This document shows, one piece after another, positions 14,757 to 45,258 of a stretch of 64,000 nt of DNA. Every line of letters starts with the position of its first letter. Position 1 is the stretch's first letter. The notes beneath the pieces are model-generated. The model was not told the origin of the DNA. It ran no database searches and was given only the letters and a program-made list of their open reading frames with translations. The stretch is from an uncultured delta proteobacterium. Lineage in GTDB: Bacteria; Myxococcota_A; Polyangia; Polyangiales; Polyangiaceae. The position numbers and the translations under genes are program-made. The DNA lies in assembly GCA_963839305.1 (NCBI GenBank), contig CAWIUL010000011.1:2633561-2697560 (forward strand), written 5' to 3'.

Positions 14757-15083
14757 ATGGAGGAACGCCGTCAATTTCGACGACTGCAAGTTCCCGTCTA
14801 CTGCCGCGCAGCCGGCATGGAGGTGATGACGCGTCGTCACCCGATCGACTTGAGCCTCGGCGGCGTTCGTATCTACAGCGATCAGCGCTTCGCCAAAGGC
14901 GAGCTTTTGACCCTCGAGCTCATGACCGTCGATGCCCCCGCGAGCACCTTCACCGCCGAGGTCATGTGGATCGAAGACCTCCCAGCTGGATCCCCCGCTC
15001 TGTACGATGTTGGCCTGAGATTCCGCAGCGTTGACCCCACCCAGGCCACCGCGCTGGAGCGGATGTTGGCGAAATCCGAGTAG
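14757..15083 (+). CDS. PilZ domain protein.
   Basis: PilZ c-di-GMP-binding motifs RRQFRR and DLSLGGVRIY. 108 aa. Confidence 0.8.
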   Translation: MEERRQFRRLQVPVYCRAAGMEVMTRRHPIDLSLGGVRIYSDQRFAKGELLTLELMTVDAPASTFTAEVMWIEDLPAGSPALYDVGLRFRSVDPTQATALERMLAKSE

Positions 15084-15177
15084 TTTCGACCACATCGCAC
15101 CCACGAAAACATTTCGGCACCTCGGAGTACAAGGTGGGATAGGTTGTCATGGGCTTTGCATCAGCCTCCCTACTAAG

Positions 15178-16551
15178 ATGTCCCTCTCCCGTCGTACCTG
15201 GCAGAACATCAACTTGATCGGTGACTGCCTGCTGCTGTTTCTCGCAGCCAGCGCAGCGACCGTCTTCCCTGGCGGCATCCACTGGATGGTCGCCCTCGGC
15301 ATGGCCACCGGCGCGATGTTGCTGTGGATTGTCGGCAGCCGTGTGCTTCGGCATTACGACATCGGAAACGGCCGCGGAATCCCGGGCGATGTGGCGCTCA
15401 CGCTCGTCTTGCTCTTCGCCACGGTCGTGCCGATGTTCGCGCTCCGCTACATGGTGCCGCGCTACGCGGCCGTCGCGGACATGACGCGCTTCGTGACCGT
15501 GTTCGTGATGGGCGTCGTGTGGCTTCGCCTCTTGACGAGCTGGCTCAAGACGCGCCCGCCGCAGCCGCCCGAGGAGATTTTGATCGTCGGTGTCGGCCCG
15601 CTCGGACGTCACACGGGTCTCGAGATTCATGCGCAAAAGCGCAACCGACGCGTGACCGGTTATCTCCGCTTGGTCGACGAGCCGGAGCACAAGCGTTTGC
15701 CCGCGGGCATCTTCGGCATGGTCGACGAGCTCGAGAACGTGCTGAAGACGCACGTCGTCCACGAGGTTTACCTCGCGAGCAGCGAGGAGACGCACCGCGC
15801 GCAGATCCAAGAGGCGATCCGCGTCTGCGAGCGCTTCGGGATCCCGTTCGCGCTTCCGGCGAACCGCTTCCGCATCGCGCGCGCCGAGCCGCGCGATCGC
15901 GCCGCGCTGGGCGACGGCTACGTCCACTACCTGTCGTTCCGCCACAAGCCGGTGCAGCTGCTGCTGAAGCGCGCGTTCGACATTTTCGCGTCGAGCGTCG
16001 CGATCGCGCTGCTCTCGCCGATCTTCATCGGCGTGGCCATCGCGATCAAGCTCTCGTCGAAGGGCCCTGTGCTCTTTCGCCAGCCGCGCGTCGGTCGCTA
16101 CGGGCGCATGTTCAACATGCTCAAGTTCCGCTCGATGGTCGTGAACGCCGAGGAGCTCAAGGCGAAGCTCATGGCGCAGAACGAGCAGACCGGCCCGGTC
16201 TTCAAGATGACGCGCGACCCGCGCGTGACGGGCATCGGGCGCTTCATTCGCAAGTACTCCATCGACGAGCTGCCGCAATTCATCAACGTGCTGCGTGGCG
16301 AGATGACCATCGTCGGGCCGCGCCCGCCGGTTCCGAGCGAGGTCGCTCAGTACGAAGCGTGGCAGCGCCGCCGTCTTTCCGTGCGCCCCGGCATCACTTG
16401 CGTGTGGCAAGTGAGCGGACGGAACCAAATCGGCTTCGAGGAGTGGATGTATTTGGACATGCAATACATCGACAACTGGAGCATCACGCAGGATTTCCAG
16501 TTGATTTTCAAGACCGTGCCGGTCGTGCTCTTCGGCAAGGGCGCGAGCTGA
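15178..16551 (+). CDS. Polyprenyl-phosphate glycosyl-1-phosphate transferase (WbaP/EpsZ-like initiating enzyme).
   Basis: Five N-terminal TM segments. C-terminal bacterial sugar transferase domain (KFRSM, DELPQFINVLRGEMTIVGPRP). Start chosen at ATG 15178. Confidence 0.9.
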   Translation: MSLSRRTWQNINLIGDCLLLFLAASAATVFPGGIHWMVALGMATGAMLLWIVGSRVLRHYDIGNGRGIPGDVALTLVLLFATVVPMFALRYMVPRYAAVADMTRFVTVFVMGVVWLRLLTSWLKTRPPQPPEEILIVGVGPLGRHTGLEIHAQKRNRRVTGYLRLVDEPEHKRLPAGIFGMVDELENVLKTHVVHEVYLASSEETHRAQIQEAIRVCERFGIPFALPANRFRIARAEPRDRAALGDGYVHYLSFRHKPVQLLLKRAFDIFASSVAIALLSPIFIGVAIAIKLSSKGPVLFRQPRVGRYGRMFNMLKFRSMVVNAEELKAKLMAQNEQTGPVFKMTRDPRVTGIGRFIRKYSIDELPQFINVLRGEMTIVGPRPPVPSEVAQYEAWQRRRLSVRPGITCVWQVSGRNQIGFEEWMYLDMQYIDNWSITQDFQLIFKTVPVVLFGKGAS

Positions 16552-19990: not shown

Positions 19991-21198
19991 TTCGCGGCCT
20001 TCTCCCTCGTCGTACGAACCCACGTGCTCGGTCGGTCCGACGCGGCCAGTCCGAGCTTCCAGACGACGTACACCGGCGCCCACGCGAGGTCGAGCGCTGC
20101 CCGCGGCCCGAGCCGCGTGAGCTGAACACCACGGAAGACGTACGCGCCGACCATGGCGCCCGCGACGGTCCACGGGATCCACGCGACCGGGCGCGAGCCG
20201 GTCGCGATCGCGAGGGCTGCCGTGATCGCGGACGCGCCGAGGCCGAGTACGATCGAAACACCGAGCTTCGAGAGCGGCGGCGTCAGGAGATCGGCGCCGA
20301 GGTCGAACAGCATCGCGTTGCGCTCGACGATACCGCGCTTCAAGAGGCGCCAGCCGTGCTTGTCCGTGAGCTCGCGGCGGCCTTCTTCCCAGCGTTGCCG
20401 CTGCGAGCGCGCGGCCTTGCCCGTCGAGACCATCTCGCCGAGCACCGCGGCCTCGCCCACGTACGCGACGCGATGGCCCGCTTCGCCGAGGCGAATGCCG
20501 TACTCGACGTCCTCGACGATCGAGAACGCGTCGTGAGGGACCTCTCGGAGGACGCTGCACGCGAAGCCCATCCCGTTTCCGCGCAGGCCGCACGAGACAC
20601 CGAGTCGCTCGCGCGCGTTCGAGCGCACCACGTGGAAGAGCGACATCGCGATGACCATGAGCCGCGTGCGCCAAGAGGCCTCCGGGTTTCGCACGCCGTA
20701 CTCGGCTTGCACGGCGACCTCGCCCGCGGAGAAGCGCGCGGCGAACGCCATGAGCAGGTTCTTCGTGACGCGCGTGTCAGCGTCGACCACGACGACGGCG
20801 TCGGCGTGACCTCGAGCGAGCGCCTCTTCGAACGCGCGCGCGAGCGCGTAGCCTTTGCCGCGTTTCTCCGCGTCGACGCGCTCGATCACCTCGGCGCCAG
20901 CCGCTCGTGCGCGAGACGCGGTGGCGTCGCTGCAGTTGTCCGCGACGACCACGACGCGAAAGCGATCGCGCGGATAGTCCACGGCGAGCAGGCTCGCGAC
21001 GGTCTCGGCGATGTTCGCCTCCTCGTCGTGCGCGGGGACGATCACGTCGAAGTACGGGCGCTTGCCGTTCGCCTTGGGCGCCGCCTTCGGCTTCGACAGC
21101 GCGGTGAGCGCGCCGAGGTAGCCGGACGCGGCGAGCGTGGGGAGTGACGCCGCGGCTACCGCGCCGTCGAGGAGCCGAAAGGCGGTCCGGAGTCTCAC
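19987..21198 (-). CDS. Family 2 glycosyltransferase, membrane-anchored.
   Basis: DVIVPAHDEE, VVVADNCSD, VVVDAD, QRQRWEEG (QxxRW), C-terminal TM helices. GTG at 21198 overlaps the PCP stop. An alternative ATG lies at 21249. Confidence 0.8.
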   Translation of the reverse strand: MRLRTAFRLLDGAVAAASLPTLAASGYLGALTALSKPKAAPKANGKRPYFDVIVPAHDEEANIAETVASLLAVDYPRDRFRVVVVADNCSDATASRARAAGAEVIERVDAEKRGKGYALARAFEEALARGHADAVVVVDADTRVTKNLLMAFAARFSAGEVAVQAEYGVRNPEASWRTRLMVIAMSLFHVVRSNARERLGVSCGLRGNGMGFACSVLREVPHDAFSIVEDVEYGIRLGEAGHRVAYVGEAAVLGEMVSTGKAARSQRQRWEEGRRELTDKHGWRLLKRGIVERNAMLFDLGADLLTPPLSKLGVSIVLGLGASAITAALAIATGSRPVAWIPWTVAGAMVGAYVFRGVQLTRLGPRAALDLAWAPVYVVWKLGLAASDRPSTWVRTTREKAAK

Positions 21199-22676
21199 GT
21201 CTCGAGCTCCCCCAGGATCGGCAACTTGAGCTTCCGCTCGACCTGCCACGGTTCGACGATGACCCCGAGGCGCCGCTCGCGCAGCACGACGCCGCCGAAC
21301 GCGAAGACGAAGATCGCGAACGCGATGCCCAAGAAGAGCGCGATCGGGTTGGGGTTACGCGGGCGCCTCGTGACCTCGGCGGGGTGGACGATGCTGAAGC
21401 GGTATTTGTGCGCCGTCTTCGCGATGTCGAGCTCGATCTGCGCGCCGTCGATGCGGTTCTCGAGATCCGCGTATTTCTGGGCGCATTGCTGCAATTTCAT
21501 CTGCGCGACGGTGACCGCGGGATCCTCCTCCATGATGAGCCGCGAGCTCGGCGAACCCGTGAGCGCGGCGATCGTCGCGGCGGACGAGTGCGTCGTCGAC
21601 GCCGCGGCGATCGCGGTCGCGAGCGGCGGCGCGTTCACGGCCACCTTGTCGATGAGCGCGCGCTCCTCGTTGCGCAGGCGCGCGAGGTCCGGCGGCTCGG
21701 CCTGAGCCTCCACGAGCTTCTGCTTGAGCGCGACGACCGTCGGGTGCTCGGGCCTGTACTGAACGAGCGCGTCCGAGAGCTGCTTGTTCAGCTCGTTGAT
21801 GCGCTGCGTGCGCTGCGACTCGACCTGTTGGATCTCGTTGCGCTTGTCCTGGAGCGCTTGGAGGAGCGCGGGATCGACGGCCGGCGCGTTGGCGCTTGCC
21901 TTCGGCGCGGGCGGCGCCATGAAGCGCGGCTGAGCGACCGCGTTGTTCGCCTTCGCCGCCGGTTTCTTCTTCATCTCCAGCGACTCGAACTCGTCGCGCG
22001 CCTCGTCGAAATGCGACTTCTCCTCTTTCGCGTGCTGCTGCAGAATGTCGATCGCGTCGTTGATGACGCTGATCTCCGCGTCGTAGCGCGCGTCGATGAA
22101 GTTCTTCTCGACCGCGGAAGCGAGGTCATACGCCATCTGCGCGTCGGTCCACTCCGCGGTGATCGTGATCGTCGTGTCGTCGCTCGTGACGGTGAGCCGC
22201 TTCTCGAGCACTCCTTCGATCGCTCGCATCCGGTCTTGCTCATCCGGCCGTCCCGCGAGCTTCTCGGTGACGCGATCCCTCCAACGGAGGAGGGTCGGCC
22301 GCGACCCCGCCCACCGGTCGACGAGGTTCACTTGCTTGATGAGCCCGACGAGGTTGTCGTGCTGGAGGATCGTGTCGCCGACGTTCTTCGTGGGGTTGTC
22401 GGCCTCGCGCGGGACGGTGCGGTTCGGGTTTCCGAGCGCGGGGAGCACCAGGTTGCGCTGCGCGAGGATTTTCACCTCGGTCGAATACGTCCGCGGGTAG
22501 AGGACGAACAGCGCACCGCCCAGACCGAGCGACAGCACGAGGAGGGCGATGAACCTGTACGGGTTCCTCCTCGGAGCGCGCAGCACGTAGCCGACGAAGT
22601 CGGAGATGGCGTGTAGGTCAAGCCCCTCCTCTTCCTCCTCGTCTTCGTGCCGATTGTGATCTTCGCCTTTGGGCAT
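21195..22676 (-). CDS. Polysaccharide co-polymerase (Wzz/Wzc periplasmic domain) protein without a kinase domain.
   Basis: N- and C-terminal TM helices flank a long coiled-coil periplasmic region. Acidic N-terminus. Ends right after the second TM. Confidence 0.8.
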   Translation of the reverse strand: MPKGEDHNRHEDEEEEEGLDLHAISDFVGYVLRAPRRNPYRFIALLVLSLGLGGALFVLYPRTYSTEVKILAQRNLVLPALGNPNRTVPREADNPTKNVGDTILQHDNLVGLIKQVNLVDRWAGSRPTLLRWRDRVTEKLAGRPDEQDRMRAIEGVLEKRLTVTSDDTTITITAEWTDAQMAYDLASAVEKNFIDARYDAEISVINDAIDILQQHAKEEKSHFDEARDEFESLEMKKKPAAKANNAVAQPRFMAPPAPKASANAPAVDPALLQALQDKRNEIQQVESQRTQRINELNKQLSDALVQYRPEHPTVVALKQKLVEAQAEPPDLARLRNEERALIDKVAVNAPPLATAIAAASTTHSSAATIAALTGSPSSRLIMEEDPAVTVAQMKLQQCAQKYADLENRIDGAQIELDIAKTAHKYRFSIVHPAEVTRRPRNPNPIALFLGIAFAIFVFAFGGVVLRERRLGVIVEPWQVERKLKLPILGELET

Positions 22677-24561: not shown

Positions 24562-24569
24562 GGCAAACC

Positions 24570-26461: not shown

Positions 26462-26462
26462 G

Positions 26463-28857: not shown

Positions 28858-28888
28858 CAGCTCGAGTTTCCGTAGTCACGCCATATGA

Positions 28889-29698: not shown

Positions 29699-29701
29699 GT
29701 A

Positions 29702-30163: not shown

Positions 30164-30326
30164 CGCGAGCTTCGCACCGAGTCGGGAGCGTCGACGACGA
30201 GCGTCGCCCCGCGCGCTTCGCGCATGACGCGCGCGAGCCTCCCGCGAGGCTGCTCGGACGCGTCCTCGGCGGTCGTGGACGCGGGCGATTCGAAGGTCGC
30301 AACGAGCGGCTTGGCGAGCGGGCTGG

Positions 30327-30974
30327 TCACGGTGGCGATTCTCCTCGAGCGAACGCGGCGAGTGAATCGAAAGTCCGCGGGCGCGCGAACAGGTCGTGCG
30401 GGAAGCTCACGCCGAGCTCCTTCTCGAGCGCGACGAGCACTCGAAGCGCGGCGAGCGAGTCGAAGCCGCGCGCTCTCCGCACGTCGCTCGCGTCGTCGAG
30501 CTCCGCGGCGGCCGCGACGATGCGGCAGACCACGTCGCGCACGCGCTCGCGGGTCGCGTCCTTCGCCGGCGCGCCGTTCGCCTTCTGGGCGTGGGGCATC
30601 TCGCCGGTGCCGGTCACCACCGCCCCATCAGCGATCCACGCGTTGTCGGCGATCGAGAGGTCGCCCGCGATCTCGTCGTCGACGATGCACCCGACGCCGA
30701 TGCGCGCGCCGCGACCGACGACGACGCGACCGCGCGCGCGGATCACGGCGCCGCTCTCGATGAGCGCGTCTTCGCCGATCTCGAGCTACGCGCCCGGGCG
30801 TACGACGATCGTGATCGGCGCGGGCGTCGACACGAGCACCGCGCGCGCCCCCACGACGAGCGCTCCCTCCACTGCGACGCTCGGCATCCCCAGCACCCGA
30901 ACGCCCGAGCCCACGCGAGCGCCGAGCGTGAAGCGCGCGCGCGCGGCGTCCAAGCGCCCGGCCACGGCACGCAC
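30327..30974 (-). pseudogene. Hexapeptide-repeat acyltransferase fused to a C-terminal acyl carrier protein, interrupted by an in-frame TAG at 30786-30788.
   Basis: ORFs 30786..31103 and 30327..30746 share a frame. Hexapeptide repeats continue across the TAG. The C-terminal 80 aa are a canonical ACP (GFDSLAALRVLVALEKELG). Probable GTG start at 30974. Confidence 0.6.
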
Positions 30975-30988
30975 GAGCTTGCGTCGGA

Positions 30989-32524
30989 TCAAGCGAGCCC
31001 CTCGACGGTCACGAGCGAGCGCGCCCCGGGCATTTCGCCGAGGTCCACGCGCCACGCCTCGCCGTCTCGCGCGAGCCGCGCGCGCGCGAAGAAATCGACG
31101 CACGGCTTGTTCTTCTTCGTCGGGATCGGCTCGACCGAGAGAGAGAGCGCGCGCTGAGCGCCTTCGCGCGCGACACCGCCGCCCAGAGGATCGTCTCCTC
31201 GACTCGGCGCCCCATCACGCGGCAGCTCAAGAGGTAATCCTCCAGCGTCGCGCGATCGCCCTCGCGCGAGACGCCGAAGAGGCCCGTCAACCCTGCGTCG
31301 CCGAAGCGGTCGGAGACGTGCGCCGCCCAGACCTCGTGGCCAGGAGCGGCGGCCCACGCGAGGAGCTCGCTCTCGCTCATGCGGCGCGTGCGGAGGTTCA
31401 TCTGGTTCGTCTTGTTGAGGAGCTGCGCGGCGCGCGCGACGTTGCCCTTCGCGACGCGCTCGAAGCGAACGACGAGACCGAGCGTCGCGAGCCAGTCGTC
31501 GATCGACGTCGACACGCTGCGTAGCGCGGTCCGCTGGCGCTCGGTCGCGTACATCGCGTTGCGCTCGAGGTCCTCCTTGCTCACGTGCGGCGTGTCGAAG
31601 CAGCGAAGCGACTCCAGCGCGCGGCCGTAGTGCGTCGGGTCGAGCGCCCACTCCGGCACGTAGACCTCGGGCAACGCCTCGCTGACGCGGCCGCGTTCGA
31701 CGGGGTTGTCGTCGATGAACACGACCGACTGAAGGCCGAGGTTCAGCTCCGTCGCGATCTCGACGATGTTACGCGCCTTGTCGCTCCAGTTGATGCGATA
31801 CGAGGCCAGCATCTCCGGCCGGATGATCATCTCCGGGCGCCCAGACGAACGCGAGATCGACTTTCGAATCGCGCGAGCCGAGCCCGATGAGCGTGGGGAT
31901 CACGTGGTCGAACGGCGCGACCTCGGCCTCGATGGAGAGGCCGTCGAAGTCGATGTCCGCGAGCTTGTGGGCGAGCTCGTCGATCGTGAAGTCGGCGGCG
32001 AGCACTGCGCGGACGCGCGTCATCGTGGGCGCGCCTCGCACGGTTTGTGCAGCGAAAGGGGCGTGTTTGGCCGGCGCGCGTTGCTCGGAGGGGACGGTGG
32101 ATCCGGGTGGCACTACTGCGCCCCGTGGCACGACGCAGCCCGCGACGATTCGCGCGCCCGCGCCGATGCGTACGCCCGCTTCGATCGTGATCGCCGAGGA
32201 GACGCCGTCCGCGCCGCGGTCGCATATCGTCACGTTGGGGCCAATGATCACGTCCTGGTGCACGCGCACCTCAGAGTCCGAGAAGATGGCGACGCCGGGC
32301 TCGATCGTGACGCGCTCACCGATCGTGATCGTTCCCGCGTTGGTGGTCGCGAGGCGAACCGGCGAGGCGCTCGAGTGGATCGTGACCTCGTCTCCGATCT
32401 CGATGCGGCCCTCGTTGCGAACGAGCGGGCGGCCCGAGACGCGAACGTCGCGTCCGACGCTGTCGCAATCGTCCAGGCGCAGCATCGCGGAGAGGCCACG
32501 AAGCATCATGAGCGGTGCGATCAT
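30989..32524 (-). pseudogene. LbH (hexapeptide) domain fused to an FkbH-like (HAD-IIIC) domain, with two apparent frameshifts.
   Basis: LbH repeats run from the ATG at 32524 (ITIGERVTIEPGVAIF...). The FkbH-like N-terminus (IDFDGLSIEAEV...SKVDLAFVWA) is in the frame of ORF 31769..32932. The central part (RINWSDKARNIVEIATELNLGLQSVVFIDDNPVERGRV) is in the frame of ORF 31009..31830. The C-terminus (VEPIPTKKNKPCVDFFARA) is in the frame of ORF 30989..31651. Shifts fall near 31835 and 31140. Confidence 0.55.
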
Positions 32525-32566
32525 CGAGCGTTCGACGTCAGAGCACGGAGCATGCCGTGTCCTGTG

Positions 32567-34356
32567 GTACTCTGCCGGGTCGCCCTGTGAGCACTGCGCA
32601 CGCGTTTTGGTTCGGGCCGAAAGGACGGCGTGCGTTCGGTTGGTTTCATCCACCGGTGGGGAAGGCGCGCGCTCTGGGCGTCGTCTTGTGTCCGCCGCTC
32701 GGTCACGAAATGTTGTGCACGCATCGCGCTTATCGTCACCTCGCCGAAGGTCTGGCCGAGCTCGGATTTCCGGTTCTGCGCTTCGATTACCACGGGACAG
32801 GCGATTCGCCAGGGGGCGATCGTGACGAGGATCGCGTCGGCGCGTGGCTCGGGACGATCGACGACGCGATCGAAACGCTGAGGCAGACGGGGATCGCGCG
32901 CGTGGCGCTCTTCGGCATGCGCGTCGGCGCAACCTTCGCCGCTGCGGCCGCCGCGCGACGCGGCGGGGTCGACGAGCTCGTGATGGTCGCGCCGTGCGTC
33001 TCTGGCGGCACGTTCCTCCGCGAGCTCCGCGCGTTGCACAAGCTCCGCGAGCGCGGCGAGGCGAGGCCGCCCTTCCACGGACAGCGCGAGGGCGACGAGG
33101 AGGCGATCGGCTTCGTATTCCGGCGCGAGACGATCGAGGCGCTCGCGAAGGTGGACTTTCGCACGCTCGCCACGAAGCCCGCGGCGCGCGCGATGATCGT
33201 GCCGCGCGACGACATGCCTGGCGGGGAGACGCGCATCGCGGACCGCCTCCGCACGCTCGGCGTCGACGTCGAGGTCGTTTCGGCGCCGGGCTACGCGACC
33301 GCGGCGAGCGACGATCCGTACGTCGCCGAGGTGCCCACGGAGATCTGGCGCGCCGTGACGGCCTGGCTCGAGCGCGCGAACCCGGAGAGAGACATCACTC
33401 ACGCGAGCCCGGAGGGCGACAAGGTCGAGCCGATCGACTCGCGCGTCGTCGAGTCCGCGATCCGCTTCGGCGAAAACGACCGGTTCTTCGGCGTCCTCAG
33501 CGAGCCCATCGGATCGCGCAGCGAACTCGCGGTCATCGTTCCAAACACGGGCGCGAACTCGCGCGTCGGGACGAACCGCTTCAACGTCGCGCTCGCGCGT
33601 CGCCTCGCTTCGCGCGGGCACGCGGTCCTTCGCATGGATCTCGGGGGAATCGGCGACAGCGCACCGCACGACGGCGCGCGAGAAAACGACCTGTTCGCGG
33701 ATCGGTCGATCGCCGACGTGCGCGCCGCGATCGACGCCACCGCCGCGCGCGGATACCGCCACTTCGTCACGATGGGTCTCTGCGCCGGCGCGTACATGTC
33801 CTTCCACACGGGCCTCACGGATCCGCGCGTCGCGGGGATGGTTCTGATGAACCCGCCCGCGTTCGAGTGGACGCCGGGGCGCAAGGTCGAGCGCATCGTG
33901 ACGCGGCCACACGGCAACGTGCGTTCGATGCGCTACTACCGAAATCGCGCGCTCCGGCTCGACACGTGGCGTCGGCTCGCGCGCGGCGAGGTCCAAGCCG
34001 GCGCGATCGGTCGCGTGCTCGCGGCGCGCGCGAGAGGTCGCGCCGCGACGGCGGTGAAGCGCGCGGCGATCATCCTCGGTCGTCCCGAGTGGGTGATGAG
34101 CGATCTCGCGCAGAAATTCACGGCCCTCGTGCTGCGCCGCACCCGCGTGCTCTTGTTGTTCAACGACGAGGAGGCGATGCTCGACGAGCTCGACAAACAC
34201 CTCGGCGGCCTCATGGTTTGGCTGACGAAGCGCGGCGTCGAGCTCGAGACCATCGACAACACCGATCACATCTTCGCGCCCGTGTGGTCGCAGGAACGCG
34301 CCTCGGACGTCCTCACGGACTTCATCGATCGGGTGGCGAGGGAGAAATCGCGATGA
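32567..34356 (+). CDS. Tandem alpha/beta-hydrolase fold protein (two hydrolase domains).
   Basis: Two repeats of an alpha/beta-hydrolase core, with nucleophile-elbow-like GMRVGAT and GLCAGAY. A GTG start at 32567 with GGAG upstream was chosen over the longer ORF, which overlaps the divergent gene. Confidence 0.6.
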
Positions 34357-35645: not shown

Positions 35646-37136
35646 ATGATCGACGAGCACAAGGCACGAAGACGGCACGAGACGCAGCTCGCCATGCGCA
35701 ACATGGCGATCGTGGGCACTTCGCTGGTCGCCACGTGGAGCGTCGCGCTGCTCGTGCGGCTCGTCCTCCCGCGCCGGCTCGGACCGGCGATCTTTGGGCA
35801 ATACAGCTTCGCTGAGGCGCTCGCCATCAACGGCTTCGCGTTCCTCGGGCTCGGCGTCGACATGTACATCCAGAAGGAAATCCCGCGCAGGCCGGAGCAC
35901 GCGTCGGACTTCTTCGGCGGGACGCAACTCATTCGCGTGGCCGGCAGCGTCGTCATACTCGCCGTGCTGGCGCTCACGGCGCGGCGCGCAGGCTACGGCG
36001 CGGAGGTCGTCGGCACCACGCTTGCTTTTGGCGTTGCACAGCTGTGCGTACTGCTCGCCAACACGTGCGCCACGCTGCTCTACGCGGCCCGGCGCGTCGG
36101 CAGGCTCTCGGCGCTGAACATCGCGACGAAGGTCGTCTGGGCGGCCGGCGTGAGCCTCGCGCTCGTGCGCCGCGCGAGCTTGTGGACCTACGCGGCGGTC
36201 GCGGTGCTGAGCGAGGCGATTCGGCTGGTCGTGCTCTATCGCCTCAGTCAGACCGTGGCGGACGTGCGCGTGCGCATCGAGCCGCGCCAGACGTTCACCG
36301 TCCTCAGGCGGAGCGCGCCGTTCTGGGTGAACCAGGTCGCGATCGTCCTCTACTCGAAGATCGACGTGGCGATCATGGGCATGCTCGTGACCGATCGCGA
36401 GCTTGGGTTCTACGGCGCCGCGACGAACATCTCGAGCGTCGCGATGCTGATGTCGCCGTTCGTGGGATGGGTGCTGACGCCGCAGCTCGCGCGCGTGGTG
36501 GACGATCGCGTGGAGTTCGTGTCGCTGCTCCGGCGCTCGTTCGAGTGGACGCTGGCGCTGGCCATCCCGATCGCGATGATCCTCGGGCTCGGCGCGGACG
36601 TGATCGTCCACGGGGTCTTCGGCGCGAAGTTCGACCCCGCGATCGGCGCGATGCGAATGCTGATGCCGATCTTCGTCGTCGTCTACGTCGCGATGCTCGG
36701 CGCGACGGCGATGATCCTGCTCGATCGATCGTGGACGGTGACGATCGTCACGCTGCTCTCGCTCGTCGCGAATGCATTGCTCAACCTGATCGTCGTGCGC
36801 CCGGCTTGGCACGCGCTCGGCGAGGGCGGCGCGGGCGTCGGCGCGGCCGCGATCTCGGTGAGCACGGAGGCGGTGGTCGCGGTGACGTACATCTGGTACC
36901 TGCGCCGCGAGATCCTCGACGCGCGAAACGTCACGTCGGCCTTGAAATCGCTGGCGGCGTGCGCCGTCGTCGTGGCGTTCCACGTGCTCAGCCCCGACCT
37001 GCGCGCTTGGCGCCTGCCGATCGATGTGGTGCTCTACAGCGCGCTCGTCGTCGGGACGCGAGCCGTGCGAGTCTCGGAGCTTGTCGCGCTCGTACGAACC
37101 ACGTTAACTCGGAGAGGAAGTCATGCGAATTCGTGA
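35646..37136 (+). CDS. wzx: Wzx-type oligosaccharide flippase (polysaccharide biosynthesis protein, MOP superfamily).
   Basis: About 14 TM helices in the Polysacc_synt family pattern. The start may be the internal ATG at 35694. Confidence 0.8.
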   Translation: MIDEHKARRRHETQLAMRNMAIVGTSLVATWSVALLVRLVLPRRLGPAIFGQYSFAEALAINGFAFLGLGVDMYIQKEIPRRPEHASDFFGGTQLIRVAGSVVILAVLALTARRAGYGAEVVGTTLAFGVAQLCVLLANTCATLLYAARRVGRLSALNIATKVVWAAGVSLALVRRASLWTYAAVAVLSEAIRLVVLYRLSQTVADVRVRIEPRQTFTVLRRSAPFWVNQVAIVLYSKIDVAIMGMLVTDRELGFYGAATNISSVAMLMSPFVGWVLTPQLARVVDDRVEFVSLLRRSFEWTLALAIPIAMILGLGADVIVHGVFGAKFDPAIGAMRMLMPIFVVVYVAMLGATAMILLDRSWTVTIVTLLSLVANALLNLIVVRPAWHALGEGGAGVGAAAISVSTEAVVAVTYIWYLRREILDARNVTSALKSLAACAVVVAFHVLSPDLRAWRLPIDVVLYSALVVGTRAVRVSELVALVRTTLTRRGSHANS

Positions 37137-37710
37137 GCTGATCCTCGTGTGTGCGCTCGGTGCGGGCGCATGCGGCCCCTCGGGGTCGTACGTCTGGGTG
37201 AAAGACCTTCCGCCAACCGGCGATTTCTCGACGGACTACCTCATCGCCACTGGCGACGTGATCAGTGTGCGTGTGATCAATCAAGATTCGATGAGCACAC
37301 GCGCGCGCGTCCGCAACGACGGCCGCGTGGCGCTCCCGCTCGTCGGTGACGTCGAGGTCCGCGGGAAGAAACCGGCGTCGGTGCGCCTCGAGCTCGAGGC
37401 GCGCCTCAAGGAGTACCTCGTTGCGCCGAGTGTCACCGTGAACGTCGAGGAGGTGGCACCCGTGACGGTGAGCGTTCTCGGCGAGGTCACGCACCCGGGC
37501 GTCGTGCAGATGGACGGCTCGGGCGGCGTCGCGCAGGCGCTCGCGTCCGCGGGCGGCCTCACCGACTACGCGTACCGCGATCGCATCTTCGTCGTACGCT
37601 CCGGTGGCAAGCCTTCGCGCGTGCGCTTCACGTTCGACGAGCTCGCGGGCGGCGATTCGGCTGCGTCGCGCTTCACGCTGCGACGCGGAGACGTCGTCGT
37701 CGTCGAGTGA
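37123..37710 (+). CDS. Short outer-membrane polysaccharide export (OPX/Wza-like) lipoprotein lacking the C-terminal OM-spanning helix.
   Basis: Lipobox LGAGAC. Poly_export (PES) motif PLVGDVEVRGK with SLBB-like regions. Only 195 aa. Confidence 0.8.
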   Translation: MRIRELILVCALGAGACGPSGSYVWVKDLPPTGDFSTDYLIATGDVISVRVINQDSMSTRARVRNDGRVALPLVGDVEVRGKKPASVRLELEARLKEYLVAPSVTVNVEEVAPVTVSVLGEVTHPGVVQMDGSGGVAQALASAGGLTDYAYRDRIFVVRSGGKPSRVRFTFDELAGGDSAASRFTLRRGDVVVVE

Positions 37711-37790
37711 GGCGGCTGATGAGCGCGCTCATGTTCGGCTGGTCTTGTCCTCAACCTGCGCGCGATGTGCGAGCCTCGGCTGCGGGGTGA

Positions 37791-39263
37791 TCAGCCGTGG
37801 GCAAGTTCATCGTCTTCAGCATCCTCGGCGCGACGGTCATCATTCCCCTCATTTATGCGCGCGAGGGGCGTCGTACCAAGCGAGGGCTTCGGAGGACCCT
37901 CGTCGCCTTCGGCGTGTACTGCGCGCTCTGGGTCCTCGCCACGCTCTTCATCGCTCCCCGCCTTTGAGGGCTTCGCCTCGGGCCACGCGCCGCTGAGGAC
38001 TGGCACGCGGATCGCGACGCCGATCGAGACCGCCATGAGCACGTCCGGCGAGAGCGTGACCCAGCCCATGTCGCCCCACATCTGCAGGATGAACGTCGTG
38101 ATCGTCGTCAGCCCCAAGATCGCCGCGACGCGCACCGTGCCCGACCGCGAGGCGCGCACGGATATCAAGAGGAAGAACGACGCGACGACGAAGAGCTGCC
38201 AGCACAGCCAGAAGCCAAGGATCCCGCTGAACGCGAGGAGCCCGAGCACGCTGTTGTGCGGGATGAACCGGTACTGCGGGAAGACCTCCTTGATGCTGAG
38301 CGCGACGGACTGCTCGTCGTACTCGTGGCCCCACCCCGTTCCGAGGAGCGGGTTCGTGCGCAGCGTCTGGACGAGGTTGTAGTTCTCGATGTCGCGCATC
38401 TCGCTCGACGTGTCCTGGTGCGTGCCGAACATCGTCGAGATCGAGCCGACGGGCTTGAACACCCCCTCGGTGCGGCCCCAGCCGACCGCGACGTAGAACG
38501 CGAAGAGCGGGACCGCGCCGATCATGAGCCAGTTCATGCGCCGCTTGAAGCGCGTCCGCGGGAGTACGTAGTAGAAGAGCGCGAGGCCGACCATCAGGCT
38601 CAGCCACGCGAGGCGCCGGTTGTTCCACTTGATCGCGAGCGCCAGCGGGACGCACGCGGCGATCATCCACAAGAACGAGGTGAGCCTACGACGCTCGATC
38701 GCGTTGGCGATCACGACGAGCATGCCCGTGACGAAGAGCGCGCTGTCGGCGTGCGTCGTCATCACCTGCAGCGGCGGGTCCAGCCCACGCGCGACGGTCA
38801 AGTAGAAGACGATGAGCACGAGCGCGCGATAGACCGCGGCGAAGAGCACCACCTTGCCGAGCGCCGCGATGTGCTTCGCCGTGCGGCACGTCGCCGCGAC
38901 GGCGAACGCGAGCGCGAGCGACATGACGAAGCTGTGGAGCTGCCACATCGTTTGCCGCACGTCGCCGCCCCGGATGACGCCCCAGATCCAGAAGCCCGCG
39001 ATCGAGAGCAGGGCGACCTTCGCCGACTTGACCACGGGCTTCGCGCGGTCCTTCGACGCGCCCTTCGCGCCAAGCGCGACGAAGAGCGTGATGAGGAGCG
39101 CGATGTCCCAGAGTGGGAATTTGATGCCCGGGAGCGGCTTGAAGATCGCCGTGCCGATCGTCGTGAGCGGCGTCTCCCACTTGCCCGAGAAGGTGTCGCC
39201 CTCGATCTCCGCCGTGAGGGCCAGCCAGGCGAGCAGGAGTGTGAAGCGTCGGGCCACGATCAA
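37791..39263 (-). CDS. wzy: Wzy-type polysaccharide polymerase / O-antigen ligase family membrane protein.
   Basis: About 11 TM helices with a large periplasmic loop, in the Wzy_C family pattern. Acidic C-terminal tail. Confidence 0.8.
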   Translation of the reverse strand: MIVARRFTLLLAWLALTAEIEGDTFSGKWETPLTTIGTAIFKPLPGIKFPLWDIALLITLFVALGAKGASKDRAKPVVKSAKVALLSIAGFWIWGVIRGGDVRQTMWQLHSFVMSLALAFAVAATCRTAKHIAALGKVVLFAAVYRALVLIVFYLTVARGLDPPLQVMTTHADSALFVTGMLVVIANAIERRRLTSFLWMIAACVPLALAIKWNNRRLAWLSLMVGLALFYYVLPRTRFKRRMNWLMIGAVPLFAFYVAVGWGRTEGVFKPVGSISTMFGTHQDTSSEMRDIENYNLVQTLRTNPLLGTGWGHEYDEQSVALSIKEVFPQYRFIPHNSVLGLLAFSGILGFWLCWQLFVVASFFLLISVRASRSGTVRVAAILGLTTITTFILQMWGDMGWVTLSPDVLMAVSIGVAIRVPVLSGAWPEAKPSKAGSDEERGEDPERAVHAEGDEGPPKPSLGTTPLARINEGNDDRRAEDAEDDELAHG

Positions 39264-39266
39264 TCC

Positions 39267-40655
39267 TCAGAGAACAAACCTGGGTTCGTGCCAAACGAAC
39301 GTGAGGAACAGGTTCGCCGACCAGAACTCTCCGGTGAAGGGGTCATGCTGCCAAGCGCCGCGGAGGCCGAGGCCCGCTTCGATGCGCTTGTCGAGCCTGC
39401 GCAGGACCTCGGCCTCCCCCGTGACGTACGTCGCGTCGAGCGACGAGCCCCAAAGGCTGCGCACGAACGCGACGTCGCCCCTGAGCGAGTGCCTCTCGTC
39501 GATGCGCTTGAGCGCGGCGGCGCCGACCTCGAGTCGCGGGTCGATGATGCCATAGTGCATGTCCACGACCGGGCCGACGCGCGTGTAGACGTACGCCGCG
39601 GGTCGCGGCAGGGTCATCGGATGGAGGGCAGGACGATCGGCCTGCGCGTTCTGAAGCGTGTACGTGAGGATCGCGCCGAAGACCGGGTATGGCACGACGC
39701 GGTACGGTTGCGCGGGGTTGCCGTCTTTGAACGTGAGCGTGTCGATTGACGACGACGGGTAATAGATTCGTTGCGAGCGGTCGTCCGTGTCGTTGACGGT
39801 CACCCGCGCGAGCGTCGCGCCGCCGACGAGATCGATCATGATTCGCCTCGCGATGGCGTGACTCCACACCTCGCGCACGCCCACCCACTGGCCGCTCGGC
39901 GCGCACAGCGGAGGATTCGGGGTGGTGAGGTTGAGCTGCGGCCCTCCGGTCGCCGGATCGCACGGGCGTTGCGTCGAATCCGCGGCCGTTGCATCGCCCT
40001 GCGTGACGAGGGTGTCGCGGCGCGTGACGCGTTGCGCGACGGTGAGGTCGACGTGCGGAACCGACACGAGGGGTACGAGCGCGCGCGAGGGTTCGTCGAG
40101 GCCACCGTTCAGGCTGTAGCTGGCCGAGATCGAGAACGTCGTCTTGCGGTGGGTGTAGTGCAGCATCGCGCTCGTGGACGACGAGCCGTACGTCACGGTC
40201 TCGCTGGCGCAGTGAGCCAGGTCGGTGCAGGGAAGGAGCTGCACGGGCGGTGGGCCGCCCAGCACCTGTCCCGGCGCGATGGCGTACGGCGTGAGGAACG
40301 AGAAGTTCATCTGCCCGAACGAGGCGCCTTCCGACGCGCTGATGCCCCAGTGGCGAGACGCGTACGAGGCCGACGTCTCCGCATACTGGAAGAGCAGCGG
40401 CGCTTGCGGCGTGGTGAAGAGCATCTCGAGATCGGGCTCGGTGATCTGCGCCGCGTAGCTGAACCTGAAGTCGAACTGGCGCGACTTCGTCTCGAAGTGC
40501 GCGTAGGGCGACGTCATCAGATCGAGCCCGGCAGTCGGCACCTGCGCGCCCGTCGCCGAGATCGTCGGGGTCAAGCGCAGGCGAAGCTCGTTGACCGCGC
40601 CGATGTCGATCGTGGAGAGGAGACCGCTCGCGACGAGGACGATGCTGCCCAGCAT
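39267..40655 (-). CDS. Predicted outer-membrane beta-barrel protein, probable partner of the short OPX.
   Basis: Alternating amphipathic beta-strand pattern, with aromatic residues at the C-terminus (…HEPRFVL). Gene context between wzy and the glycoside hydrolase. Confidence 0.55.
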   Translation of the reverse strand: MLGSIVLVASGLLSTIDIGAVNELRLRLTPTISATGAQVPTAGLDLMTSPYAHFETKSRQFDFRFSYAAQITEPDLEMLFTTPQAPLLFQYAETSASYASRHWGISASEGASFGQMNFSFLTPYAIAPGQVLGGPPPVQLLPCTDLAHCASETVTYGSSSTSAMLHYTHRKTTFSISASYSLNGGLDEPSRALVPLVSVPHVDLTVAQRVTRRDTLVTQGDATAADSTQRPCDPATGGPQLNLTTPNPPLCAPSGQWVGVREVWSHAIARRIMIDLVGGATLARVTVNDTDDRSQRIYYPSSSIDTLTFKDGNPAQPYRVVPYPVFGAILTYTLQNAQADRPALHPMTLPRPAAYVYTRVGPVVDMHYGIIDPRLEVGAAALKRIDERHSLRGDVAFVRSLWGSSLDATYVTGEAEVLRRLDKRIEAGLGLRGAWQHDPFTGEFWSANLFLTFVWHEPRFVL

Positions 40656-40659
40656 TGCG

Positions 40660-42762
40660 TCACTCGACCGCTACACCGATGGGCGCGACGAGGTGCGCGT
40701 CGATGACGCTGATCGAATAGGCGGGCAAGGTGAGCTTCACGTGGCCCGTCGCGGCGGTCGCCGGCGTGCTCGTGAACGCGTCGCCCTGGCCCGTGTAAGT
40801 GTACGCGGTCGTCTTCTCGGTCTCGCCGCACGATCCCATGTCGACGTCCGCGGCGATCGCGGCATCGGGCGAGAAGTTGAGCACGACGAGGACCACGTGC
40901 TTGCCGTCGCGATCGCGCGACGCGAAGAGCGACGTCTGGAGCGAGGCCTTCGTCGGGATGGAGAAGTCCTCGAAGCGCGCTCCCTTGCCGTCGAAGTTAC
41001 GATATGCGTTGAACGCGGCCGCAGCGGGCGAACCAGCGGGCGGGACGGTCCAGTAGTACGCCGCGGTCACGCCGTACTCGCCGAAGCGACCGAGCGCCTC
41101 CGCGTCCGCGAGCCCGCCGCTCATGTGCGGCTCGCCGCCGAAGCTCCACTCGCCGATCATGATGCCGAGCCCCGGGTAGCTCTCGTCGATCCACTGGCGC
41201 ATGCGCGGCAGCAGGTACACCGGTTCGTTGATCCACGACTCGTCGGTGTAGCTGCGATCCCAGAGGCCGCGCGTCATGTTGATGCGGAGCGCGGCGGTCT
41301 TCGGATCCGAGGCGGCGGAGTAGACGTTCTGCCCCTGCGGGTAGAAGTGCAGGTCGAGGAGATCGAGCAGCCTCGTGTTCGTCTTGTCGGCCTCGGCCTT
41401 CACGCGCTTGAGGAGCCACGGCACGAGCGGCTCGTCGCCGTGGGCGCGCCGGTCGGGCTTGATGCGGAAGCCGGCCTTCGCGTCCTTTGCGGAATACAAA
41501 TATCCGGGCCATCCCCACTCGGCGGGTCCGGCGATCTTCACGTCGGGCGCGGCCTTGCGCACCGCGGCCGCGTACTGGAGGGTCTTCTCGAGGAGCTCGT
41601 CGTACGTGGTCGGGTCGGGGTGGACGTCGCCGTGCGTGCTGTTCCAGAGGGCGGGCTCGTTGTCGAGGATGACGATGTCGATCTTGCGGCCGTCCTTCTT
41701 GAGCGCCTCGAGCCAGCGCGCGTCGAAGCTCGGATCGATGCGGATGCTCGTGCGTTCGGGAGGACCCGGCGTGACCGGCTTGCCGTCGGGTTTCATGCCG
41801 TTGCCCGCGTCCTTGCGGAAGTCGTCCACGCGCTGCTGCGCGCCGAAGACGCTCACGGGGTACGACGACGACGTCGTGTCCTTCGCGACCCAGCCGAGGA
41901 TCGGCACGGTCAGCGCGCTCGACATCCCCATGCTGACGTTCTCGTTGAAGAACGCCGAGACCGGCTTGGCCTCGACGTTCTCGAAGAACCAGTCGTTCCC
42001 TGTGTTCCAGGCGTTGAGCTGCCAGTTGTATCGCGTCGTCGGGTTGCCGCCCCAGCGGCGCGAGGTCGCATGCACCGTCGGCGGAGCCTTCGCCATCGCG
42101 TTCCACGCGATGCCGTACACGAGCGGGCTGATCGCCTTGCCGTGCGCGCGGCAGTCGACGCGGAGCGTGGCGCTCGCCGACGGGATCGGCGAAGGCGGGG
42201 GCGCGCCGCCGTCGGCGCCGGCGGCGACGAGCGCGATCTTGTCGATCAGCACGCGGTCCGAGGGCATGTCGCGAAACGCGCGCAAGACGATGCGATCGAA
42301 CGGCGCGTCGTCCGGATCGAGCTCGCCGATCGGCACGTAGACCTCTTCCCAGCCATCGGCGAGATCGGCCTTCTGATCGGCGCGCACCATCACGCGCGGG
42401 AAGATCTTCTTGTCGCGCGAGTCGAGCCGCACCTCGAGGAACTCGGCCTCACCCGGCGGCACCTTCACGTGCAACACCAAGCCTCCGAAGCGTCCCTTCA
42501 GGTTCGGCTTCGTGAGCATCCACCCGCCGCGCTTCGAAAAATCGATGCTCGCGGGGCCATGACCGATCTCGTGAGGCGACCACCCCGAGTCTTCCCAGCC
42601 GGCCTTGAGCGCGCCGTCATAGACGCTCTCGGCGATCGGGCGCGTCGCGGGGAGCGCGCCCGCCGACGACGCGAGCGGCTGTCCGCCGCGCGAGTGAGGG
42701 CATCCAAGCGCGCCGCAAGCGAGCAGTGCGAGAGCGGAGAGGTGTCGTATGCGAGTCGTCAA
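40660..42762 (-). CDS. Secreted glycoside hydrolase lipoprotein (GH44-like by motif recollection).
   Basis: Lipobox LLACGALGC, an RWGGNPTTRYNW motif and a TIM-barrel-like catalytic region. 700 aa. Confidence 0.6.
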   Translation of the reverse strand: MTTRIRHLSALALLACGALGCPHSRGGQPLASSAGALPATRPIAESVYDGALKAGWEDSGWSPHEIGHGPASIDFSKRGGWMLTKPNLKGRFGGLVLHVKVPPGEAEFLEVRLDSRDKKIFPRVMVRADQKADLADGWEEVYVPIGELDPDDAPFDRIVLRAFRDMPSDRVLIDKIALVAAGADGGAPPPSPIPSASATLRVDCRAHGKAISPLVYGIAWNAMAKAPPTVHATSRRWGGNPTTRYNWQLNAWNTGNDWFFENVEAKPVSAFFNENVSMGMSSALTVPILGWVAKDTTSSSYPVSVFGAQQRVDDFRKDAGNGMKPDGKPVTPGPPERTSIRIDPSFDARWLEALKKDGRKIDIVILDNEPALWNSTHGDVHPDPTTYDELLEKTLQYAAAVRKAAPDVKIAGPAEWGWPGYLYSAKDAKAGFRIKPDRRAHGDEPLVPWLLKRVKAEADKTNTRLLDLLDLHFYPQGQNVYSAASDPKTAALRINMTRGLWDRSYTDESWINEPVYLLPRMRQWIDESYPGLGIMIGEWSFGGEPHMSGGLADAEALGRFGEYGVTAAYYWTVPPAGSPAAAAFNAYRNFDGKGARFEDFSIPTKASLQTSLFASRDRDGKHVVLVVLNFSPDAAIAADVDMGSCGETEKTTAYTYTGQGDAFTSTPATAATGHVKLTLPAYSISVIDAHLVAPIGVAVE

Positions 42763-42799
42763 GGGCCAGCTCGTGAGGGTAGCGGATGGAAACGTCTGC

Positions 42800-43792
42800 T
42801 CAAAGCATCGCGCGGTCTTTCGACTGCTCGAGCGCGCGGATCGTCAAGAGGGTGACGCGATGGAGAGGCGAGTCGGGGCTGATGACCGTCACGTCCTGGC
42901 GAAGCTGGTCGGCGATGCCTTGGAGGATGCCGGCGACGGCCGCCTCGTGGCGCGCCTGCGGCGGCGCGCTCGGGTTCGGGATCGGGTGGCGCGCCTGGCG
43001 CGCGACGTCGGTGAGGTAGAGTAACCATCCGCCGCGCTCGAGCGGACGCGCGGCGTCGTGCGGCAGCGCGGGTGGCGTGCCTCCGAAGACGATGCGCAGC
43101 GGCTCGGCGACGACGTACGGCTTGAGGTGCACGGGAAGCTCTTCGGCGACGCGCATGCGATCGAGCAAGACCATCAGCGTGAGCGCGTGCGCCTCGCCGC
43201 CGAGCTCGCCCGCGTCGACGCGATAGAGCTCGGAGAACGCGAGGGACGACTCGAGCTCGGGCAGCGCGAACGCCTCTTCGACGTCGAGCTTCTCGCGCTC
43301 GTGATCGAAGTCACGCGTGATGCGATGCGCCGCGCGGCGAGCGAGCGTCGTCTCGCGCTCGGCGGCCGCGAGCTTCGTGAAGAGCCTCTGGAGGGCGTCG
43401 GCGTTGCGCGCCTCGGTGGGATCGTGGAGCGCGCGGCGACCGAGCGTCGCGTTGATCGCGTCGAGCGTCTCTGGCTCGAACGCGCGAAGCTGGAGGTAAC
43501 GCGTGTGATCGGCCTTGCCGAAGACGTTCTGGATGACGGCTTCGCACCGGAGCTCCGACGACGCGGCGCGCTCAGCGGGCGTCTCGCCTTGGACGTCGCC
43601 CCAGATGCCGCCCATCCAGCACGATGCGGTGTCGACGAGGAGAGCGTGCGCGGAGTGCGCGTGCGCGGCGCCGACCGCTGCGCTCGTGACGGTCGTAGAG
43701 CCGGAGGTGGATTGCGCGCACGCCGCGAGGGCGCACGTGAGCACCATCGCAGATCCGTTGAGGCGCTTTTGCTTCGTGTTCATGATGCTCAC
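42800..43792 (-). CDS. Hypothetical lipoprotein.
   Basis: Signal peptide with lipobox LTCALAAC. 330 aa. Confidence 0.55.
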   Translation of the reverse strand: MSIMNTKQKRLNGSAMVLTCALAACAQSTSGSTTVTSAAVGAAHAHSAHALLVDTASCWMGGIWGDVQGETPAERAASSELRCEAVIQNVFGKADHTRYLQLRAFEPETLDAINATLGRRALHDPTEARNADALQRLFTKLAAAERETTLARRAAHRITRDFDHEREKLDVEEAFALPELESSLAFSELYRVDAGELGGEAHALTLMVLLDRMRVAEELPVHLKPYVVAEPLRIVFGGTPPALPHDAARPLERGGWLLYLTDVARQARHPIPNPSAPPQARHEAAVAGILQGIADQLRQDVTVISPDSPLHRVTLLTIRALEQSKDRAML

Positions 43793-44069
43793 CCGGCTCT
43801 AGGGGAAGCATCGGATGTGCCACGCGCCTCAGGAGCTGCGCCTGCGATGGCGCGCCGCGGGAGCGCTCGTCTTGCGCTCGCGGCGACGCGAAGTTCGTGT
43901 CGGGCTTGCTCCGGTTCGCGCTCTTGCGCGTGGACTTCCGTGACGGGCGAGCGCTCGCGGTGCGACGCACGAGCGCGTACGTAGCTTTTCGTCCCGCCCT
44001 GCGGTTGGGCGCACTTTTGCGCCCTTGCGCGTCGTGTGCGCCGTGCGGTTCTTGGGTCCGGGTTTCGCG

Positions 44070-45258
44070 TCACGCGCGCCGCACGAACGCGAACGCCGCG
44101 ACCACGGCGACCGTCGCGAAGCCTCCGGCGACGACCGTCGCGGGCGCGCCGAAGCGCTCGCCGAGCGCGCCCGCGGCCAAGCTGCCGAACGGCGTCATGC
44201 CGAAGAACGCCATCGTGAAGAAGCTCATCACACGACCGCGCTTGTCTTCCTCGACGAGCGTCTGGATCAGCGTGTTCGTCGCGGCCATCGTGATCATCAT
44301 CCCCGCGCCTGTCGTCACCATCAGCGCGAGCGAGAGCGCCATGTCGGTCGAGAACCCGAACGCGACGAGCGACGCGCCGAAGAGCGCGCCCGCGAGGATC
44401 ATCGCGCGCTCCATGCGCGACGCGTCCTTGCGCGACGCGAGCCAGAGCGCGCCCGCGATCGCGCCGACGCCGGAGCCAGCCGTGAGGATGCCGAGCGTGT
44501 GCGGCCCGCCGCGGAGGACGACCTTCGCAAAGATGGGCAAGAGCACCTGAAACGGCGCGCCCACGAGGCTCACGAGCGCGAGGAGCATCAGCGCAGAGCG
44601 GATCGGCACGTGAGCCGCGACGTAGCGGAATCCGTCGCGAAGCTCGAGGAGCGGGTGGCGCGGCGCGCGCCGCGGCCGGAGCGCGACGCGCATCATGAGG
44701 AGCGACGCGATCACGGCGACGTAGCTCGCGGCGTCGATCGCGAAGCACCACCCCTCGCCGAACGAGGGCGATGAGCACGCCCGCGATCGACGGACCGACG
44801 AGGCGCGCGATGTTCACGATGGTCGAGTTGAGCGCGATCGCGTTCGGCAGATCCTCGCGCGCCTCGACCATCTCGACGACGAACGCCTGCCGCGCGGGCG
44901 TGTCGAACGCGTTCACCAGCCCTTGGACGATGACGAGCGCGATGACGTGCCAGACCGTGATGCGCGTGAGCGCGAACGCGGCAAGCGCCGCGGACTGCGC
45001 CATCGAGAGCACCTGCGACCAGACGAGCACGCGGTGGCGGTTCCACCGGTCGACGGCGACGCCCGCGAACGGCGCGAGCAAGAACGTCGGGATTTGCCCC
45101 GCGAAACCGACGATCCCGAGGAGCCACGCCGACCCCGTGAGCCGGTAGACGAGCCAGCTCGTCGCGACGCGCGTGATCCACGTGCCGATGAGCGAGATGC
45201 CTTGTCCGACGAAGAAGAGCCGGTAGTTCCGGTGCCGAAGCGCCCGCCCGACGTTCAT
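44070..45258 (-). pseudogene. MFS transporter (EntS-like), apparent single frameshift near 44760.
   Basis: N-terminal 6 TM in the frame of ATG 45258 (MNVGRAL...GVLIAL). C-terminal 6 TM in the frame of ORF 44070..44714. Hand translation shows continuity (...FGEGWCFAIDAASYVAVIASLL...) after a 1-nt shift. Confidence 0.65.

Follow-up and report, generated by a model that had tools for sequence, protein, structure and literature searches.

Introduction

The exopolysaccharide (EPS) pathway of Myxococcus xanthus has a composite translocon, formed by the OPX (outer-membrane polysaccharide export) protein EpsY (WzaX, MXAN_7417) and the beta-barrel EpsX (WzpX, MXAN_7418) (Schwabe 2022, PMC9601211; Saidi 2022, PMC9603273). 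EpsX is needed for EPS, and the two proteins stabilise each other and co-purify (PMC9601211). Barrels of this Wzp type are paired with about 71% of the myxobacterial Class-3 OPX genes (PMC9603273). In the present study a locus of this kind was analysed in a 64,000-nucleotide stretch (hereafter the window) of contig CAWIUL010000011.1 from an uncultured delta proteobacterium of the Polyangiaceae, in which a short OPX gene (37123-37710) and a gene for a predicted outer-membrane barrel (39267-40655) lie on opposite strands with a Wzy polymerase gene between them.

The Class-3 OPX system that has been characterised both structurally and biochemically is WzaB/WzpB/WzcB of the biosurfactant polysaccharide (BPS) pathway (PMC12819527; PDB 9n9a). 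In its lipidated form M. xanthus WzaB assembles into oligomers, and it interacts with both WzpB and WzcB (Mellouk 2026, PMC12819527); its C-terminal Ser-Phe-Phe tail binds the WzpB porin and its Arg106-Arg107 pair binds the polysaccharide co-polymerase (PCP) (PMC12819527). Among the closest known systems are also Escherichia coli Wza, a Class-1 OPX protein (PDB 2J58), and AlgE, PgaA, BcsC and PelB, which serve synthase-dependent pathways as barrel secretins.

A probable export locus of the M. xanthus EPS type

We read the locus, with a probability of roughly 0.85, as the export end of a Wzx/Wzy-dependent EPS pathway of the M. xanthus type with a composite OPX/barrel translocon, from a distant myxobacterium. 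It is a divergent new member of the known Class-3 (D1D2) OPX/beta-barrel translocon, a system already named in Pfam and NCBIfam and studied experimentally, and the traits of its own are the non-adjacent OPX and barrel genes, the coupling of the barrel gene to a glycoside hydrolase family 44 (GH44) gene, clade-specific insertions in the barrel and the lack of the two docking motifs known from WzaB, Phe-Phe and Arg-Arg. The genes at this end of the cluster are as follows (lengths in amino acids, aa; values are E-values).

35646..37136, + strand: Wzx flippase (EPS type), 496 aa; Pfam Polysacc_synt_3 3.5e-17, NCBIfam Wzx_EPS 6e-93
37123..37710, + strand: epsY-like Class-3 (D1D2) OPX protein, predicted lipoprotein, 195 aa; Pfam Poly_export and SLBB, NCBIfam EpsY 3.3e-59
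37791..39263, - strand: Wzy-type repeat-unit polymerase (EPS type), 490 aa; Pfam Wzy_C 1.9e-14, NCBIfam Wzy_EPS 1.2e-84
39267..40655, - strand: epsX-like predicted 18-stranded outer-membrane beta-barrel, 462 aa; PF28089, NCBIfam EpsX 5.4e-8, AlphaFold2 model
40660..42762, - strand: epsB-like GH44 glycoside hydrolase, 700 aa; Pfam Glyco_hydro_44 9.7e-65, NCBIfam EPS_EpsB 6.4e-216
42800-43792, - strand: predicted lipoprotein (...LTCALAAC...), 330 aa, 37 nucleotides (nt) upstream of the GH44 gene

The open reading frames (ORFs) for the OPX, Wzy and 462-aa proteins were all present at these coordinates and showed the third-position GC bias (GC3) by which genes were told from the many spurious ORFs of this window of about 68% GC, with values of 0.84, 0.92 and 0.88, respectively. 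The 3' end of the Wzx gene overlaps the start of the OPX gene by 14 nt and the two therefore apparently form one operon. On the opposite strand the lipoprotein, GH44, barrel and Wzy genes follow one another at distances of 37, 4 and 3 nt, the GH44 stop codon being located 4 nt upstream of the barrel ATG. This spacing suggests two convergent operons, Wzx-OPX against lipoprotein-GH44-barrel-Wzy, which meet with 80 nt between the stop codon of OPX and that of Wzy. A scan for promoters and terminators over 37000-43900 found none, including at a perfect 14-bp palindrome in the 80-nt spacer (ATGAGCGCGCTCAT, 37719-37732), which has no T-tract and may be a chance match.

A short OPX protein without an outer-membrane helix

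Class-3 (D1D2) OPX proteins are those with a Poly_export domain, one or two SLBB domains, a length of at most 280 aa and no C-terminal Wza_C helix. The OPX protein of the window falls within this class in domains, length and absence of Wza_C, having a Poly_export domain (polysaccharide export sequence, PES, PF02563, D1; residues 37-108, 6.5e-20, 71.5 bits where the cut-off is 28) and a single SLBB domain (D2; residues 116-194, 3.9e-12); the Pfam scan gave neither a Wza_C hit at E<=0.01 nor a second SLBB. The best NCBIfam model was EpsY and the alignment reaches the last of its 211 profile positions. The protein ends with ...RRGDVVVVE, its final residue Glu195 being one past the last strand that aligns to the solved chain 9n9a_A.

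None of the three reading frames in the 80-nt spacer 3' of the gene extends the protein or encodes a helix, and three orthologues in other assemblies (196, 197 and 205 aa) share the ending ...GD(V/I)V(V/E)VE, so that a sequence correction cannot add an outer-membrane helix. The OPX genes in three further loci of the clade encode 194-195 aa. The claim made in the first-pass annotation of this DNA, that the Wza-like protein has only 195 aa and lacks the C-terminal outer-membrane helix, is thus borne out. Could the protein be a classical Wza that was truncated by an assembly artefact? The assembly does have frame breaks, two nearby transporter genes of the major facilitator superfamily (MFS) being split, but the similar lengths and identical ends of the orthologues, the frame-free spacer and the alignment up to the end of the EpsY profile all speak against a truncation and exclude it for any practical purpose.

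A basic n-region, a hydrophobic core and a lipobox-like ...LGAGAC can be recognised at the N-terminus (MRIRELILVCALGAGAC), and residues 1-17 are a putative type II (lipoprotein) signal peptide with Cys17 as the candidate acylation site. Both Cys17 and the C-terminus with its terminal Glu are invariant in the four orthologues; a canonical L-x-[GA]-C lipobox is found in two of the four and the window protein has Ala rather than Leu at position -3.

The closest solved structure by sequence was PDB 9n9a_A (E 2.8e-17, residues 41-194), a 186-aa 'polysaccharide export protein' with Arg-Arg at chain residues 88-89. As the chain length and the position of the Arg-Arg pair fit, we take this chain to be WzaB in the soluble form (residues 20-204) studied by Mellouk et al. 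(PMC12819527). Like WzaB, the window OPX has the fold of two domains, an N-terminal Cys that may be lipidated, and a barrel and a PCP encoded in its cluster. It lacks the Ser-Phe-Phe tail, the 9n9a chain being five residues longer beyond the point where the alignment ends, and in place of Arg106-Arg107 it has Val100-Ala101 (YVRRPQV in 9n9a_A versus YLVAPSV at residues 98-104). At this position the OPX orthologues have VAPSV or VSPSV, and Val100 is invariant. Since both the tail and the Arg pair are absent, the details of docking would have to differ from those of WzaB, and the absence of the Phe-Phe and Arg-Arg motifs indicates that these contacts are not universal in Class-3 systems. E. coli Wza shares with the window protein D1 (PES) and D2, its first SLBB (E 1.4e-12, residues 58-192); the alignment stops at chain residue 227 of 359, and the D3 SLBB and the D4 Wza_C pore helix are absent from the window OPX.

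The 462-aa protein is a predicted 18-stranded barrel of the EpsX family

With an alignment of 12 sequences AlphaFold2 gave an all-beta model of moderate confidence (pLDDT, a predicted score for the local distance difference test, 64). With 73 sequences the pLDDT was 85.7 and the predicted template modelling score (pTM) 0.82, and 18 strands were placed between residues 13 and 456, the parts of low confidence being three connections between strands only. The 462-aa protein is therefore confidently predicted to be an 18-stranded barrel. The first-pass annotation had named beforehand two outcomes that would refute it, a soluble non-barrel prediction for 39267-40655 and an OPX outer-membrane helix after sequence correction. 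Neither came out, as the modelled protein is a barrel and not a soluble protein and the OPX has no room for the helix; the accompanying claim, that a barrel is encoded two genes from the OPX gene with Wzy in between, agrees with this model and with the Wzy_C and Wzy_EPS matches listed above.

The barrel gave no hit in the local Pfam-A library, which predates PF28089. The precomputed Pfam label PF28089 (EpsX) is carried by the barrel and by all its clade relatives, for two of them marked 'weak', and the match to the NCBIfam EpsX model (NF041842) covers residues 127-224 only. Close relatives amounted to 13 proteins at 90% clustering among 5.8 billion (46-59% identity), and these same 13 were all that homologue searches brought up, whether started from the clade alignment or from the one of 73 sequences. 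Relatives of the barrel occur in a Polyangiaceae metagenome-assembled genome (MAG) and in an 'uncultured delta proteobacterium' MAG, and none of the 13 is functionally named in the source databases, two being labelled only 'hypothetical protein'. The clade profile matches 462 cluster representatives at E<=0.001 and, among the matches listed, the full-length representatives are mostly 400-440 aa long and cover nearly the whole clade profile. When 73 sequences of this wider family were sampled, 69 matched the NCBIfam EpsX model, and hhalign aligned the clade to the rest of the family with 100% probability (E 1.7e-76, 407 aligned columns). The clade profile found nothing better than E ~1 among PDB sequences. 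Based on PF28089 and the homology to the wider family the barrel is best classified as a member of the EpsX family and not as a certified EpsX equivalog.

All of the 73 sampled family sequences have Cys251 and at least 90% of them have Cys232, both being located on an expected extracellular loop, and the relatives mostly end in a hydrophobic/aromatic ...PxLRF with Phe last (the window protein ends ...FVWHEPRFVL). The conserved Cys pair and the C-terminus of the family fit an exported outer-membrane protein. Two features are specific to the clade: a Cys pair in the motif PCTDxAHCA (Cys143/Cys149, invariant within the clade) and a Pro-rich connection of 19 residues (334-352, DRPALHP..DPPKP) that joins strands 12 and 13, has R341, P342, P350 and P352 invariant in the clade, is absent from the wider EpsX family and, by strand parity in the model, should face the periplasm. 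The window barrel alone has a 16-aa insertion (RIYYPSSSIDTLTFKD, residues ~296-312), which is missing from 11/11 clade relatives; in the model it falls in a segment of low confidence that connects strands 11 and 12.

Conservation of the locus

The gene order was compared between six loci of the clade (the window, L001, L002, L006, L007 and L008). All six have the block of GH44, barrel and Wzy, followed by OPX and Wzx in convergent orientation; GH44 adjoins the barrel gene in 6/6 and the OPX and barrel genes are within two genes of each other in 6/6. In the loci of a more distant relative (P0157, L003-L005) the EpsX gene directly follows a 205-aa OPX gene, at a distance of 18 nt, an arrangement shared with M. 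xanthus, and GH44 is found three genes farther along.

The locus resembles M. xanthus EpsY/EpsX in having a D1D2 OPX of about 200 aa and of putative lipoprotein type, a predicted 18-stranded barrel as candidate partner of about 410-460 aa encoded within five genes of the OPX gene, OPX and barrel proteins whose best or only NCBIfam matches are the EpsY and EpsX models, and a Wzx/Wzy setting with EpsZ, EpsV, EpsB and other EPS-type genes, the flippase, the polymerase, the PCP and the phosphoglycosyl transferase (PGT) all being present in the window. It differs in that the OPX and barrel genes are non-adjacent, with Wzy between them and in convergent operons, and in the clade-specific Cys pair and Pro-rich connection and the private insertion of the barrel. 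The comparison with EpsY/EpsX proposed in the first-pass annotation therefore holds at the level of homology and not as an analogy only, and its assignment to the OPX plus beta-barrel type rather than to classical Wza is supported by the EpsY and EpsX matches, PF28089 and the EPS pathway context.

Evidence against the proposed assignment and alternative explanations

Several observations weigh against this assignment. Every NCBIfam score for the EPS pathway is below the equivalog cut-off of its model, including those of the OPX (EpsY, 199.6 bits versus 320) and of the barrel (EpsX, a partial match of 32 bits versus 550). Scores of this kind are expected for a distant lineage, and because of them and of the partial barrel match the relationship to M. 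xanthus EpsX is one of distant orthology. At its N-terminus, where a type I signal peptide would be expected, the barrel has only a short hydrophobic segment (MLGSIVLVASGLL, about 12 residues after Met1) without a basic n-region, and an in-frame stop six codons upstream of the start rules out a longer one; such short hydrophobic N-termini (ML followed by 8-12 residues, no basic n-region) are seen across the EpsX-like family. The alternation of hydrophobicity between inside and outside in the DSSP strands was not significant in a crude test (1.47 versus 1.22 +/- 0.21 for shuffled sequences), and for this reason the estimated net lumen charge of -2 is unreliable. Finally, both of the contact motifs mapped in WzaB are absent from the OPX, and the barrel gene is coupled to GH44 and not to the OPX gene.

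The last point raises the idea that the barrel serves mainly the GH44 enzyme, in its export, its anchoring or the uptake of its oligosaccharide products, and is not the exit pore of the OPX. We consider this improbable: beside the constant adjacency of GH44 and the barrel gene stand the membership of the barrel in the EpsX family and the OPX gene within two genes of it in all six clade loci.

A still less probable explanation is that the short OPX works without this barrel, together with another outer-membrane protein encoded elsewhere or as a periplasmic adaptor only, the 462-aa protein then being a general porin whose place in the cluster is fortuitous. The two genes are indeed non-adjacent and on opposite strands, the Phe-Phe tail with which WzaB docks on WzpB is missing, and in the published surveys a syntenic barrel is lacking for between 7/48 and 47/162 of the short OPX genes of myxobacteria (PMC9601211, PMC9603273). 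Against it stand the close spacing of the two genes throughout the clade, their adjacency in the P0157 relative, the EpsX family membership of the barrel, and the finding that the window ORFs that were scanned contained no other OPX or barrel candidate.

Proposed mechanism

In the EPS-type translocon that we favour, the EpsZ-like transferase and the glycosyltransferases would build repeat units on undecaprenyl phosphate, Wzx would flip them, and they would be polymerised by Wzy and the EpsV-like co-polymerase, which is presumably what the OPX pairs with at the inner membrane. The polymer would then exit via the composite translocon, in which the OPX, tethered on the inner side of the outer membrane through an acylated Cys17, would oligomerise as a periplasmic ring, and the EpsX-like protein would cross the outer membrane above this ring as an 18-stranded barrel. 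The domain make-up, the lack of an OPX outer-membrane helix, the barrel fold, the EpsY/EpsX homology, the pathway context and the conserved synteny come from the present data, and for lipidation, oligomerisation, OPX-barrel contact and passage of the polymer we rely on the M. xanthus experiments as a probable guide.

Given the absence of the OPX motifs and the differences in gene order and barrel insertions, a different docking geometry might be conceivable, in which the OPX-barrel interface of the clade departs from that of WzaB/WzpB, the Pro-rich connection is the docking site and the coupling of GH44 to the barrel reflects an exit station with three parts, namely the OPX ring, the barrel and the glycanase. 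This proposal is speculative and on balance rather unlikely; if real, such a station would be similar to the pairs of hydrolase and porin in synthase-dependent systems, but in a Wzx/Wzy pathway.

With this locus the composite Class-3 OPX/beta-barrel translocon that was described in 2022 and dissected in 2026 gains a divergent lineage, and no new question arises from it. Given that its barrel is too diverged for equivalog annotation and that the relatives are unnamed in the databases, some of the short OPX genes surveyed as unpaired may have diverged barrel partners of this kind.

EPS pathway genes and other genes in the window

Between 15 and 43 kb of the window there is a run of genes that match NCBIfam models of the M. 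xanthus EPS pathway. In addition to the Wzx_EPS, EpsY, Wzy_EPS, EpsX and EpsB matches given above these are as follows (NCBIfam E-values unless stated).

15031..16551, + strand: epsZ-like initiating phosphoglycosyl transferase; Pfam Bac_transf 6.7e-68, NCBIfam EPS_EpsZ 5.4e-168
17823-20261, - strand: EpsD, 1.9e-103, and EpsC, 1.3e-29, in the same ORF
21195..22676, - strand: epsV-like PCP, 493 aa; EpsV 7e-80
EpsA, 3e-84
EpsU, 3.8e-150
EpsW, 1.2e-22

The epsZ-like gene is the upstream edge of the EPS-type cluster. In the ORF at 17823-20261 the EpsD match (glycosyltransferase family 2, GT2) covers residues 272-583 and the EpsC match (serine O-acetyltransferase-like) residues 645-787. As both are found in one ORF and have separate NCBIfam models, this looks like a fusion of epsD and epsC; the true start is probably internal given that the listed 5' end overlaps the EpsU-like gene.

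At the other side of the cluster, the 330-aa predicted lipoprotein has no Pfam or NCBIfam match, and its position is held in L006 and L007 by genes of 310 and 387 aa without a Pfam hit. Upstream of the cluster the two MFS transporter genes (44121-45258 and 45261-46846, - strand) are split across frames in comparison with the intact orthologues of L008, one into pieces in frames -2/-3 and the other into pieces in frames -1/-2/-3, and are either pseudogenes or indel errors of the long-read MAG assembly.

A block of decoration-type genes (23401-34356) is located between the EpsV-like PCP and Wzx. It includes an acyl-CoA dehydrogenase-like gene, an amino acid-[ACP] ligase (ACP, acyl carrier protein; NF005479, 3e-123), a 672-aa protein of unknown type, a methyltransferase, a hexapeptide acyltransferase, an ACP and an FkbH-domain protein, and a 613-aa ORF matches exosortase-A-associated hydrolase 2 (TIGR03101) at residues 31-177 and hydrolase 1 (TIGR03100) at residues 323-604. 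The related loci also have AMP-binding, PP-binding and Hydrolase_4 genes. The gene content of the block suggests that the polymer may carry an acyl or aminoacyl modification.

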